Shown in pieces: positions 56,185 through 60,035 of a stretch of 64,000 nt of DNA. The notes below the pieces were generated by a model that was not told where the DNA came from, searched no databases, and worked only from the letters and a program-made list of their open reading frames with translations. How positions within the stretch are numbered: the stretch's first letter is position 1; each line of letters starts with the position of its first letter. The stretch covers positions 1 to 64,000 of the forward strand of contig JBDRVN010000001.1 in NCBI GenBank assembly GCA_039801885.1. The letters are read 5' to 3'. The DNA is from a candidate division WOR-3 bacterium (GTDB lineage: Bacteria > Hydrothermota > Tepidihabitantia > Tepidihabitantales > DTDR01). The position numbers and the translations under genes are program-made.

Positions 56185-56281
56185 AGATATTAATTATAAA
56201 TTAAGCCGTTTCAAAAATCAAATATCTTTGAAATCTAATAAACCTTGAAAAATTATGATTATTAAGTAAAATATTTAAAAT

Positions 56282-56355
56282 GCGCCCGTAGCTCAATTGG
56301 AAAGAGCGACGGACTACGAATCCGTAGGCTGGAGGTTCGAGTCCTCTCGGGCGCA
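56282..56355 (+). tRNA. tRNA-Arg(ACG)
   Basis: ACGGA-CTACGAA-TCCGT. Confidence 0.96.
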
Positions 56356-56364
56356 TAAAATTTT

Positions 56365-56814
56365 ATGAAATTTACTGATATTTCTTTTATGGAAGAAGCA
56401 ATTAAGGAAGCCGAACTTGCTTTAAAGGAAAATGAAGTACCTGTTGGCGCCGTAGTAGTATATAAAAACAAAATAATTGGTCGAGGTCATAATCAAATGG
56501 AAAAGTTGAAAGATCCTACTGCCCACGCTGAAATGATCGCAATTTCTTCTGCTTGTAATTATTTAAAGGACTGGCGATTGAAAAACACAACTATTTATAT
56601 CACTTGTGAACCTTGTTTAATGTGTATGGGAGCAATTTTATTAGCAAGAATAAAAAAAATTGTTTATGGGACAAAAGAAGAGAATTTTGGCTTTTTCTCT
56701 AATTACTCAAGATTTTATAAATCTATTCAAGAAAAAGTTGAAATAATTAATGGAATAAAAGAAGAAGAGACAAGAGACTTGTTAAAAAAGTTTTTTGAGG
56801 AGAAAAGAAGATGA
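56365..56814 (+). CDS. tadA: tRNA-specific adenosine-34 deaminase
   Basis: EVPVGAV, DPTAHAE, EPCLMC.GA. Confidence 0.93.
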   Translation: MKFTDISFMEEAIKEAELALKENEVPVGAVVVYKNKIIGRGHNQMEKLKDPTAHAEMIAISSACNYLKDWRLKNTTIYITCEPCLMCMGAILLARIKKIVYGTKEENFGFFSNYSRFYKSIQEKVEIINGIKEEETRDLLKKFFEEKRR

Positions 56815-59800
56815 TAAAAAATTGGAGAGGTGGCCGAGTGGACGAAGGCGCGCGACTCGAAATCGCGAACCCACCTAAAAGTGGGTCGGGGGTTCGAATC
56901 CCTCCCTCTCCGCTTTTTTTATTTATAATTATTTTCAACTTACTTTTTAGTGAACCTTTCGTTGTAAAAAGAAACGAAAACTTAAGAGAACCAAATTTTT
57001 ATAATAAAGTAATAAAGCGATTTTCTCATTATAAATCCCGGAGAAATAAAAAATTATATTCTTTACCCAAAAGACTTACTTTAAATAAGCAAAATATTGA
57101 CACAATTAGAGTGTTAGCAATCAGAGTAGAATTTCAAGAAGATGATGATACTTTAACAACGGGAAATGGAAAAATGGATTTAATGGGTTTTTTAACCGAG
57201 CAAGATGGACTTTATTATGACCCACCCCATACTAAAAAATATTTTGAAAATCTTCTTTTAGGTTTGAGAAATTATTTCTGGCACAATTCTTTGGGAAAAC
57301 TTCATATTGAATTTAAAGTAATGCCCGAAGGAGCATTAGATGCCTATCAACTTCCCCATTCAATAAAATATTATGGCGATACTATGTGGAAATGGCCAAA
57401 TTATGATTTTCGCGGAATAGAAATGGGGCTTTGTCGTCTTATGGAAGATGCTTTTATTCTTGCTGACCAGGATACAAATATTAATTTTAGTGATTATGAT
57501 TATTTTATAATCTTTCATGCTGGTTCCTGTGCTCAAACTGACATTAAAGAAAACTCACCTTTTGACCTATGGGCTGCCACAATTAATAGTGAAGCATTAG
57601 AATATTATTTAGGGAAACCCTATATTGAAGTGGATAATGGAAATAAAAGAATTGATATTGCCTGTATTTTACCAGAAATGACTAGGCAGGATACTTTATT
57701 ACCTAACGGAAAAATAAACTATGGTGGAATGATGGGAATGCTCGGACTTTTTACTCATGAATTCGTTCATCTTTTAGGCGGTTATGATTTGTATGATGTA
57801 ACTGGTTATTCTATGGGGGTCGGCGGCTGGAGTTTGATGGGCTACGGAGGCTGGCTTGGTGGTTATGATTGTCCACCAGGAACTATTCCTGCTTATCTTG
57901 ACCCATTTCATAAAGTCTTATTTGGTTTTTTTGAACCAAAAGTTATTAATCTTTCATTAGATAGTCTATTTTGCTTTACAATGGCTATGGACTCATTGCT
58001 ATTTTCTGAGAAAGATACTCTGCCGTTTATATATAAAATGACAATTTCGGAAGATGAATATTTTCTTATTGAAAACCGACAAACCGATGTCCGCAAAAAA
58101 GATACAATTGTCGTTAAAAGAGAAAACGGCGTTGTTATTGGTGTAGAAGATGGTGAATATGATTTCTTTTTACCTGGCGGCGGCATTTTAATTTGGCATA
58201 TTGATGAAAAAATTATTAGGGAATACGGTCCTTATAACGCGATAAACATCAATCCCGCTCATAAAGGTGTTGATTTGGTAGAAGGAGACGGGATTCAAGA
58301 TTTTGATAAATTTATTTATCAGGATTATTATGAAATGATTGGTTCTAAATACGACCCTTTTTTCAAAGGTGGTTTTTTAGATAGTTTAACCGAAAATACT
58401 AATCCCAATAGTGATGGTTATTATGGAAAGACTTATTATCGCTTTCGTATTCTTTCTGAACCAGATACAGTTATGTATTTTACTTTTCAGAATAGATTAT
58501 TAAGAAAAGAATTGACAAAAAATTTTTCCGAGCCCTTATTATCTCCTTTGGCAGCAGATTTAAATTGTGATGGTAAAAAAGAAGTAATAATTCCTTGCTC
58601 AACAGGAGTAATTTATGCTTACGAACCCGATGGCAACCCTTATTTAGGTTATGAAATTCTTTGCCAATTACCATCAGAAATAACAGCCGATTTATCTATT
58701 GGTGATATTACCGGTGATAGTTTATTAGAAATAATAATAATCTCTTATGACCGCATTGTTGTTATTGATGCTTTCGGAAACTTTCTTTTTGATTTATTTT
58801 TAAACGGCGAAATAAAAAGTGAAGCATTACTTTACGATGGTAATAACGATAATAAGAAAGAAATTATTGTTGGAACTGAAAAAGGTTATCTATATATAAT
58901 TAACGGTGAAGGAAGAATAAGAGAAAATTTTCCTATAAGACTAATGGGAAAAATAAAATTGACACCAGCAATTTGTGATTCTCAGATTGTTGTTCTTACT
59001 GATGATAACCAATTATATTTACTATCTTTGAATGGCAATATAAAAATTGGCTTTCCAATTTCTCTTTCCAACTCTCCTTTCTCTTCTCCCTCATCTCCAA
59101 TTATTTCTGATTTTAATAATGATGGAAAAAAAGAAATTCTATTATTAATTCCAATTAATTTAAATTACAAATTATTTATTATTTCATCTGATGGAAATAT
59201 AAAATATTCTTCTCAAGAAATTATGGAATATCCTTCTTTTTCTTCCTTAGCAATTGGTGATGTGAATAATGATGGCAATTATGATATAATTGTTTTTAGT
59301 AAAAATAAAATATTTGCCTTTAATTATAATCTTACTTTAATTAACAACTTTCCGATTTTTTTTGATTCTACTTATTTAAAAGAAATTATTTTAAATGGCT
59401 ATCTTTTCTATGAAGAAATATCTTTTTATTTTTATACTTCACCGGTTATTGGTGATTTTGATGGTGATGAAATTTGTGATATCTTTGCTGGACTTCCCAA
59501 CTTTGGTTTTTCTATAAATAAAAAACAAAAATTATTTACTACCGGTGGGATAAAAACTATTCCGTTTATTACTGATTTGGACAATGATTCTTTTGTTGAA
59601 TTACTTATAACTACCGAAGATAATTATTTATATGTCTATAATACCTTTGGTAAAGAGAATAACATATTTTGGCAGACAAAATTAGCAACTACCGAAAGAG
59701 ATGGGAGGGTTTTAAAGGAATTAGAAAGAAAAGTTACTTCTGATAAATCACTTATCAGTTATTTTTATATTTATCCCAATCCCATTACCATTAATGATCA

Positions 59801-60035
59801 AAAGGGATATCTAAGATTTTATCCCACCCAAGAAATAAAAGAAGCAAAGATTGAAATTTATGATTTTTCTTTCAAAAAAGTATTTGAAGATAAGATAAAT
59901 AATTTAAAAATCTTAGATAATGAATATAGAATTGACATCAGAAAATTTAAAACCGGTATTTATCTTTTGAAACTGGAAGTTAATTCTCAAAATAATAAAG
60001 AAATAAAATATTATAAGTTTGGTGTTGTAAAATGA
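56811..60035 (+). CDS. M6 (immune inhibitor A-like) metalloprotease with FG-GAP/VCBS repeats and T9SS-like tail; 5' end overlaps tRNA-Ser
   Basis: VEFQ.D, IFHAG, HEFVHLLG.YDLYD, WSLMG.G, EYFLIENRQ, ILIWHIDE; D.N.DG..E repeats; YPNP..TGIY. Confidence 0.85.
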   Translation: MIKNWRGGRVDEGARLEIANPPKSGSGVRIPPSPLFLFIIIFNLLFSEPFVVKRNENLREPNFYNKVIKRFSHYKSRRNKKLYSLPKRLTLNKQNIDTIRVLAIRVEFQEDDDTLTTGNGKMDLMGFLTEQDGLYYDPPHTKKYFENLLLGLRNYFWHNSLGKLHIEFKVMPEGALDAYQLPHSIKYYGDTMWKWPNYDFRGIEMGLCRLMEDAFILADQDTNINFSDYDYFIIFHAGSCAQTDIKENSPFDLWAATINSEALEYYLGKPYIEVDNGNKRIDIACILPEMTRQDTLLPNGKINYGGMMGMLGLFTHEFVHLLGGYDLYDVTGYSMGVGGWSLMGYGGWLGGYDCPPGTIPAYLDPFHKVLFGFFEPKVINLSLDSLFCFTMAMDSLLFSEKDTLPFIYKMTISEDEYFLIENRQTDVRKKDTIVVKRENGVVIGVEDGEYDFFLPGGGILIWHIDEKIIREYGPYNAININPAHKGVDLVEGDGIQDFDKFIYQDYYEMIGSKYDPFFKGGFLDSLTENTNPNSDGYYGKTYYRFRILSEPDTVMYFTFQNRLLRKELTKNFSEPLLSPLAADLNCDGKKEVIIPCSTGVIYAYEPDGNPYLGYEILCQLPSEITADLSIGDITGDSLLEIIIISYDRIVVIDAFGNFLFDLFLNGEIKSEALLYDGNNDNKKEIIVGTEKGYLYIINGEGRIRENFPIRLMGKIKLTPAICDSQIVVLTDDNQLYLLSLNGNIKIGFPISLSNSPFSSPSSPIISDFNNDGKKEILLLIPINLNYKLFIISSDGNIKYSSQEIMEYPSFSSLAIGDVNNDGNYDIIVFSKNKIFAFNYNLTLINNFPIFFDSTYLKEIILNGYLFYEEISFYFYTSPVIGDFDGDEICDIFAGLPNFGFSINKKQKLFTTGGIKTIPFITDLDNDSFVELLITTEDNYLYVYNTFGKENNIFWQTKLATTERDGRVLKELERKVTSDKSLISYFYIYPNPITINDQKGYLRFYPTQEIKEAKIEIYDFSFKKVFEDKINNLKILDNEYRIDIRKFKTGIYLLKLEVNSQNNKEIKYYKFGVVK
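56824..56912 (+). tRNA. tRNA-Ser(CGA)
   Basis: GGAGAGG acceptor stem, CGCGA-CTCGAAA-TCGCG, long variable arm CCCAC..GTGGG, GTTCGAATCC, G discriminator. Confidence 0.95.

Follow-up and report, generated by a model that had tools for sequence, protein, structure and literature searches.

A complete gene for tRNA-Ser(CGA) is embedded, in frame, near the 5′ end of a long open reading frame (ORF) for an M6 metalloprotease in the DNA examined here, a 64,000-nucleotide (nt) stretch from a candidate division WOR-3 bacterium that is referred to below as the window. The ORF opens with an ATG that overlaps the stop codon of tadA, the gene for a tRNA adenosine deaminase, and the tRNA gene fills the interval between this ATG and the codons for the hydrophobic core of the protease signal peptide (Table 1). 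Across the genus, the frame and the upstream ATG are kept, and no canonical start codon follows the tRNA ahead of the conserved mature part. From these comparisons we judge it somewhat probable that ribosomes restart at the ATG at the tadA stop codon and translate tRNA-Ser as the n-region of the signal peptide, in competition with maturation of the tRNA. A stronger formulation, to which we give equal weight for and against, holds that a working elongator tRNA is obligatorily dual-coding, that its maturation and protease synthesis are mutually exclusive, and that this state originated in the loss of a start codon and has been kept genus-wide by selection.

The basic layout is as the initial annotation of this sequence described it. 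The ATG at 56811 overlaps the TGA of tadA as ATGA (the tadA 3′ end reads AGA AGA TGA), its frame is open through the tRNA into the hydrophobic core, and no in-frame ATG, GTG or TTG lies between the end of the tRNA and the hydrophobic stretch, the first being the GTG at 57111. In the protease frame the tRNA reads (W)RGGRVDEGARLEIANPPKSGSGVRIPPSP, with a further in-frame GTG at 56838. The core (56913-56948) directly follows the discriminator base of the tRNA and has no canonical start of its own. The equation of the tRNA with exactly 30 codons was slightly off, in that the interval 56823-56912 is stop-free but includes one leader base, the tRNA itself being 89 nt long (ARAGORN places it at 56824-56913). 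This length bears on an explanation wherein the tRNA acts as an intron, such that excision by RNase P and RNase Z followed by ligation of the flanks would join MIKN to LFLF.... The arithmetic on which this explanation draws, that removal of 90 nt leaves a normal-looking signal peptide, is correct and is the single point in its favor, but it does not amount to a mechanism: exact excision of 89 nt shifts the frame into a stop. Moreover, we know of no bacterial pathway that ligates tRNA flanks. We therefore regard an intron-like tRNA as hardly credible.

Within a single genome, a tRNA gene that happens to be open in one frame is no more than chance would supply. In the source genome (G000; 1.56 Mb, 31% GC, 91% complete, 45 tRNA genes found), the 135 tRNA-by-frame combinations include 59 that are open and 14 that have a 5′ ATG before any stop. 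The case rests instead on genus-wide retention, which was evaluated in the surrounding taxonomic order. This order comprises 66 species genomes, 55 of which have an orthologue of the protease at E <= 1e-60. The 55 loci examined consist of 51 from 51 genomes (G000 included) and four metagenome contigs (L021, L022, L024 and L025). The metagenome scan gave nine loci, among which L021-L024 are of the genus type and add one new sequence; L023 duplicates L022 and is not tallied separately in the 55-locus set. The genus is thereby represented by five species genomes and four metagenome contigs, making nine loci with six distinct sequences. The identical layout in these five genomes and four independent contigs led us to reject an assembly error or frameshift, as did the fact that no ATG in any frame could be read from the window sequence over the approximately 190 nt 3′ of tRNA-Ser.

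The order of genes, tRNA-Arg/tadA/tRNA-Ser/M6, is conserved across the taxonomic order. The tRNA-Ser(CGA) gene sits directly 5′ of the protease gene in 51 of the 55 loci, and the other four (L006, L052, L055 and L057) stop at a contig end. No locus with sufficient upstream sequence lacks the tRNA, and the possibility that it is a recent insertion was therefore rejected. Outside the genus, 36 of 42 loci have an ATG, GTG or TTG after the tRNA, mostly within 60 nt and followed by a hydrophobic core, and many of these 36 also carry a Shine-Dalgarno (SD) sequence. The remaining six, all from GC-richer distant lineages, are ambiguous. In the genus, the first in-frame ATG, GTG or TTG lies 113-260 nt past the tRNA in 9/9 loci, a position 38-87 codons into the conserved mature part, beyond which no hydrophobic core follows. 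All nine also have a tRNA frame free of stops, a hydrophobic core that starts at the first base past the discriminator, and an in-frame ATG 4-19 nt 5′ of the tRNA with no intervening stop. Thus, the pattern that the initial annotation had named as contrary to its proposal, a tRNA that lacks an open frame and is followed by a normal ATG, was found outside the genus but in none of the nine loci within it.

The absence of stops from the tRNA frame in the genus can be traced to a C30-G42 pair in the anticodon stem (numbered by alignment columns). At the same position, 27 of 29 loci outside the genus have a T-A pair that creates an in-frame TGA. The C-G pair is also present in L007, from the nearest outside family, and in L025. 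The arrangement in L007 is conventional, wherein the tRNA is followed by 8 nt, an ATG of the gene's own and then MKENHQKKKNW plus the core. An adaptive opening of the tRNA frame is unsupported, since the pair is common to L007 and L025.

The protease itself bears the marks of a gene in use. The long ORF encodes an immune inhibitor A-like M6 metalloprotease with an HEFVH zinc motif and FG-GAP repeats (PF13517). The match to PF05547 scores 36 bits against a cut-off of 22 and covers only profile positions 224-287 of 294, and a C-terminal sorting domain of the type IX secretion system (T9SS; PF18962) is found at residues 987-1062 with 31 bits against a cut-off of 27. Given the T9SS sorting domain and the HEFVH motif, the protein is expected to need a Sec signal. 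The ratio of nonsynonymous to synonymous substitution rates (dN/dS) is 0.08-0.14 at dS of 0.60-1.44 (15 pairs from the six genus sequences), and full-length open frames of 1074-1080 codons occur in 5/5 genus genomes with the gene. By these measures the protease is under purifying selection and is not a pseudogene. Together with the fact that the only hydrophobic core starts at the base that follows the tRNA, they indicate that the gene is needed and that its translation would have to begin at or before the end of the tRNA.

These data bear directly on the proposal that the genus makes no secreted product, whether because the gene is a decaying, 5′-truncated remnant or because a cytoplasmic protein is made from a downstream GTG, TTG or ATG. 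The NCBI model of a sister-species protein (P0005) does start at a downstream TTG and lacks a signal peptide. However, full-length frames and low dN/dS at dS of up to 1.4 are not what decay would leave, the downstream starts vary by species and sit inside conserved mature sequence, and the T9SS sorting domain is kept. Loss of the secreted product is consequently very improbable.

The tRNA is likewise constrained. Its cloverleaf is kept: 12 of 26 pairs show compensatory change, and some of these changes, in the variable arm, distinguish members of the genus from one another. It is the sole tRNA-Ser(CGA) among the 45 tRNA genes found in the 91% complete G000 assembly, where UCG makes up 3.7 of every 1000 codons and 6.9% of Ser codons. 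This tRNA-Ser(CGA) is, as judged from its pattern of substitution, structurally constrained and looks functional, rather than being a decayed remnant turned coding sequence. As a separate observation, the frame through the tRNA includes a UCG codon (56886-56888), which is the codon read by this same tRNA. The codon is lost in the L005/L022 branch, and its presence is probably a coincidence.

The ATG upstream of the tRNA shows a pattern of retention that would not be expected of a triplet without a role. The spacing from ATG to tRNA is 13 nt in L001 and L004, 10 nt in L002, 19 nt in L003, and 4 nt in L005 and L022. Three more database proteins (P0001, P0002 and P0004) consist of M followed by the tRNA-encoded peptide and imply spacings of 13, 7 and 4 nt, the identity of the start codon not being seen in these records. 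All differences in spacing are multiples of three (3, 6 and 9). The same is true of every length change between the ATG and the mature part, which include +6 nt before the tRNA in L003 and indels of −3 and +9 nt after it, in the h- and c-regions. The single 1-nt length difference, between L005 and L022, falls between the tadA stop and the ATG and hence outside the proposed ORF. L002 has lost the ancestral ATG and carries a new one at the next codon. The upstream ATG is the sole ATG in each genus spacer, and outside the genus a stop-free, in-frame ATG within 20 nt of the tRNA occurs in only 2 of 27 loci. At dS of 0.6-1.4, an unconstrained ATG would mostly be lost. A fair reading of the length data is that four frame-preserving changes have occurred, which would be expected by chance at roughly (1/3)^4. 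The offset of the ATG from the first base of the tadA stop is −1, +2, +4 or +5 in 9/9 genus loci. Between the two alternatives offered in the initial annotation, dual coding is favored, although not proven, by the coincidence in all nine loci of a missing start, an open frame and an upstream ATG.

Public models of the protease disagree about its 5′ end. P0001, P0002 and P0004 run from M through the tRNA, whereas the NCBI model P0003 starts at the T-loop ATC and P0005 starts as noted above. P0003, from a sister species, begins MPPSPFF, which corresponds to that ATC when judged against L002. Initiation inside the tRNA on the unprocessed transcript, at the T-loop ATC (56898) or the GTG at 56838, would translate only part of the tRNA and yield the full hydrophobic core. 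The T-stem offers a run of GGGGG followed by 5 nt and the ATC, which resembles SD spacing. However, the G-run and ATC are universal features of the T-arm in a stable hairpin and carry no mark of selection, ATC is a weak initiator (bioRxiv 10.1101/063800), the conserved upstream ATG is left unexplained, and P0003 is a pipeline call rather than evidence. We consider a start within the tRNA to be quite improbable.

For translation through the tRNA, we infer the following course of events. The template would be the unprocessed tRNA-Arg/tadA/tRNA-Ser/M6 transcript, on which a ribosome ending tadA would restart at the ATG, which either overlaps the tadA stop or is no more than 5 nt away from it. Termination-reinitiation requires such overlaps or very short distances, according to Huber et al. 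2023 (PMC10666635), and the junction between the protease gene and the next gene of the operon is likewise ATGA. The terminating ribosome would already cover the first bases of the tRNA and keep it unfolded, and could restart without an SD, which fits the absence of a conserved one. The 89-nt tRNA sequence would then supply about 30 codons for an n-region of unusual length, comprising 34 residues with a net charge of +3 and ending in GVRIPPSP before the hydrophobic core. The tRNA-encoded peptide thereby supplies the positive charges (K, R) for which the orthologues have K/R-rich n-regions of their own. On export, signal peptidase would remove the whole extension and leave the mature T9SS protease unchanged. 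Once RNase P and RNase Z had cut at the tRNA, the start codon and the bulk of the ORF would no longer be on one molecule. Making the tRNA and making the protease would therefore be rival fates: each transcript would give one or the other, and translation would have to come before maturation. As for origin, the ancestor of the genus may have lost the protease start codon and charged n-region, leaving the core butted onto the 3′ end of tRNA-Ser(CGA). Deletion of spacer, start and n-region in an L007-like, stop-free background would produce the present layout.

Several observations weigh against this scheme. A folded tRNA would hide the bases just past the ATG and thus make for poor ordinary 30S initiation. 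The GAGGAG that the initial annotation had placed 8 nt 5′ of the ATG is indeed present at 56797-56802, but in the window species only; among the features that were to be compared in relatives, the upstream ATG and the frame are kept in the genus and the SD is not. An ATG near the tadA stop is also found in 7 of 27 other loci, and ATGA at the stop in 5 of 27, such that a tendency of the ATG to track the tadA stop is weakened as independent proof. (The tadA end was not placed in L035, L036, L038 and L042, and tadA was not found in L013 and L025.) The stop-free tRNA frame is, by the comparison with L007, a pre-existing condition rather than an adaptation, because that locus already has the C-G pair while possessing its own ATG. 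The tRNA-Ser stretch uses codons that are rare in the 31% GC genome. Because the genus sequences are related, the counts given above overstate independence and are indicative rather than a formal test. Two metatranscriptome runs compared with 56200-57700 gave only tRNA-sized pieces, mostly from other organisms, and one 320-nt contig, which matches 56305-56624 with one mismatch and spans tRNA-Arg and tadA; coverage is absent from 56914 on, and hence none spans the tRNA-Ser/protease junction. Finally, the organism has signal peptides that lack a charged n-region, which means that a short start after the tRNA is not absurd, and an SD-preceded CTG or ATT apparently starts the protease in three distant relatives.

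The last two points favor a near-cognate AUA, AUU or AUC start within codons 1-6 after the tRNA. Under this scenario no ribosome would read the tRNA, and the upstream ATG would be there by coincidence. The template would be the RNase Z-processed 3′ fragment, with a U-rich leader of 0-12 nt, or the precursor, and the product would have a short signal peptide without an n-region. The initial annotation had named CTT, ATA and ATT as possible non-canonical starts; CTT is an implausible initiator, and ATA and ATT gain some weight from three of the six ambiguous loci, which lack a canonical start ahead of the signal peptide and instead have a strong SD followed by CTG (L037, ~1812-1830; L040, ~1785-1800) or ATT (L041, ~1816-1825) and then a good signal peptide. 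These three loci suggest that near-cognate starts are used in the order. One or more Ile codons are present in the first six post-tRNA codons of 8/8 genus sequences compared. Genes in G000 begin 7-25 nt past tRNAs, as in tRNA-Asp followed by 7 nt and an ATG, or tRNA-Arg followed by 8 nt and tadA, so short leaders that arise from tRNA processing look usable. Indeed, in the compact G000 genome the ends of tRNAs seem to serve as the beginnings of mRNAs, much like punctuation. Signal peptides without a charged n-region are exemplified by MNFLIIPFLINFLISC, from the lipoprotein encoded after tRNA-Asp, 7 nt and ATG, and by MNFFLTILIIFYSEQ, the N-terminus of the 825-amino-acid (aa) protein encoded downstream of the protease. 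The metagenome relative L025 begins with TTG 9 nt past the tRNA and reads MIFFLILPLLFN.

Other features of the genus fit poorly with a start of this kind. No near-cognate codon holds a fixed position: even the best-conserved positions have Ile in 5-6 of 8 genus sequences, and none is Ile in 8/8. No SD lies in front, and the preceding bases CCCTCCCTCTCCG resemble an anti-SD. The window species and L002 have no ATH before codon 5, so that a start there would shorten the core to IIFNLLF, which is too little. The kept in-frame upstream ATG and the frame-preserving changes before the tRNA are not explained. Moreover, AUA, AUU and AUC initiate at ~0.1-3% of the level of AUG in Escherichia coli (Hecht et al., bioRxiv 10.1101/063800). 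The same source lists infC and pcnB as E. coli genes that start with AUU. The genus resembles such genes in having no ATG, GTG or TTG before an essential N-terminal part, but differs in lacking both a positionally conserved near-cognate codon and an SD. On balance, we view a near-cognate start after the tRNA as the strongest of the competing explanations but as rather unlikely; translation through the tRNA would account for the retained ATG and frame.

Table 1. Features of the tadA/tRNA-Ser/protease region of the window.
Feature	Position	Strand	Evidence or remarks
Candidate operon promoter, TTGAAA-16 nt-TAAAAT	56245..56272	+	10/12 consensus matches (consensus match only); just 5′ of tRNA-Arg
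tRNA-Arg(ACG), first gene of cluster	56282..56355	+	71.6 bits
tadA (tRNA adenosine deaminase), 149 aa	56365..56814	+	PF14437, 2e-35; PF00383, 2e-31
GAGGAG, SD-like	56797..56802	+	8 nt 5′ of ATG 56811; doubles as the C-terminal Glu-Glu codons of TadA
ATG, proposed initiator	56811..56813	+	ATGA overlap with tadA stop
tRNA-Ser(CGA), 89 nt, CCA not encoded	56824..56912	+	Rfam, 57.7 bits versus cut-off of 29
Long ORF, 1074 codons, M6 metalloprotease	56811..60035	+	MIKNW RGGRVDEGARLEIANPPKSGSGVRIPPSP LFLFIIIFNLLFSEP; whole tRNA-Ser(CGA) within, same strand, stop-free
Signal-peptide h- and c-regions: core LFLFIIIFNLLF + SEP	56913..56957	+	Aligns with orthologue signal-peptide cores
GTG, first canonical in-frame start after tRNA	57111..57113	+	197 nt downstream; 66 codons into conserved mature protein (RVLAIRVEF)
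Repeat protein, 825 aa	60032..62509	+	ATG overlaps protease stop as ATGA; no Pfam match

Additional features of the region and genome are as follows. At the head of the cluster, tRNA-Arg(ACG) is a substrate of TadA, which converts A34 to inosine. This tRNA gene is located directly 5′ of tadA in 18 of the 20 loci L001-L020, and the other two (L006 and L013) end too early. The ATG of tadA lies 8-9 nt past the 3′ end of tRNA-Arg and has no SD. At the other end of the cluster, the 825-aa protein contains many repeats of the form W.D.R...DIY.Q. Elsewhere in G000, tRNA-adjacent gene starts occur on contigs C1 (tRNA-Asp), C20 (tRNA-Cys), C18 (tRNA-Val) and C32 (tRNA-Ala). ARAGORN also reports that tRNA-Ser(GCT) and tRNA-Ser(TGA) share one base on the minus strand of contig C63 (3027-3123 and 3123-3212), and a tRNA-Sec gene was found in the same genome.

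Known systems provide several points of comparison. In mitochondrial tRNA punctuation, excision of tRNAs defines the ends of mRNAs, which then start at their own AUG or AUA. The locus described here is similar in that a coding sequence adjoins or contains a tRNA, but it belongs to a bacterial chromosome of ~1.6 Mb that has intergenic spacers elsewhere. Coupling by termination-reinitiation at ATGA and TAATG overlaps was reportedly described by Huber et al. in 2019. As in termination-reinitiation pairs (PMC10666635), the proposed start in 9/9 genus loci either overlaps the upstream stop or is at most 5 nt from it. Unlike such pairs, TadA and the protease are not subunits of a complex, and a complete tRNA structure is located 4-19 nt past the restart site. 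Animal mitochondria have tRNA genes that overlap or are nested in protein genes (cited in PMC8124441).

The closest precedent is bacterial. A literature search for whole tRNAs within bacterial ORFs, in which WOR-3 itself was not searched, returned only Mukai 2021 (PMC8124441) and a review that uses the same phrase. The former predicts by bioinformatics that selC, the tRNA-Sec gene, is nested in the 3′ end of selB in Alphaproteobacteria, and calls this the first report of a tRNA nested in a bacterial ORF. The selC/selB case matches the present one in having a whole sense-strand tRNA gene inside a bacterial ORF, conserved in a clade and supported by bioinformatics only, with either tRNA maturation or full-length translation proposed as the outcome. 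However, the stretch contributed by selC is a C-terminal extension that the functionally linked protein can dispense with, and translation of selB begins at a start codon of its own. In the present locus, an ordinary elongator tRNA separates the sole canonical start from the signal-peptide core of a secreted protease that is unrelated to it, and hence all protease synthesis would depend on reading through the tRNA. What appears to be new relative to selC/selB is the type of tRNA, its position at the 5′ end inside a signal peptide, and the lack of an alternative canonical start.

If this scheme is correct, bacteria would offer a second example, stricter than the first, of a tRNA gene with a protein-coding role as well. 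A practical point is that annotation pipelines silently lose or mis-call such genes. The arrangement would further mean that, on a natural transcript, RNase P and RNase Z can lose out to a ribosome, that signal peptides tolerate arbitrary inserts of 30 residues, and that a lost start codon can be rescued by capture of an ATG that overlaps the stop codon of the upstream gene.

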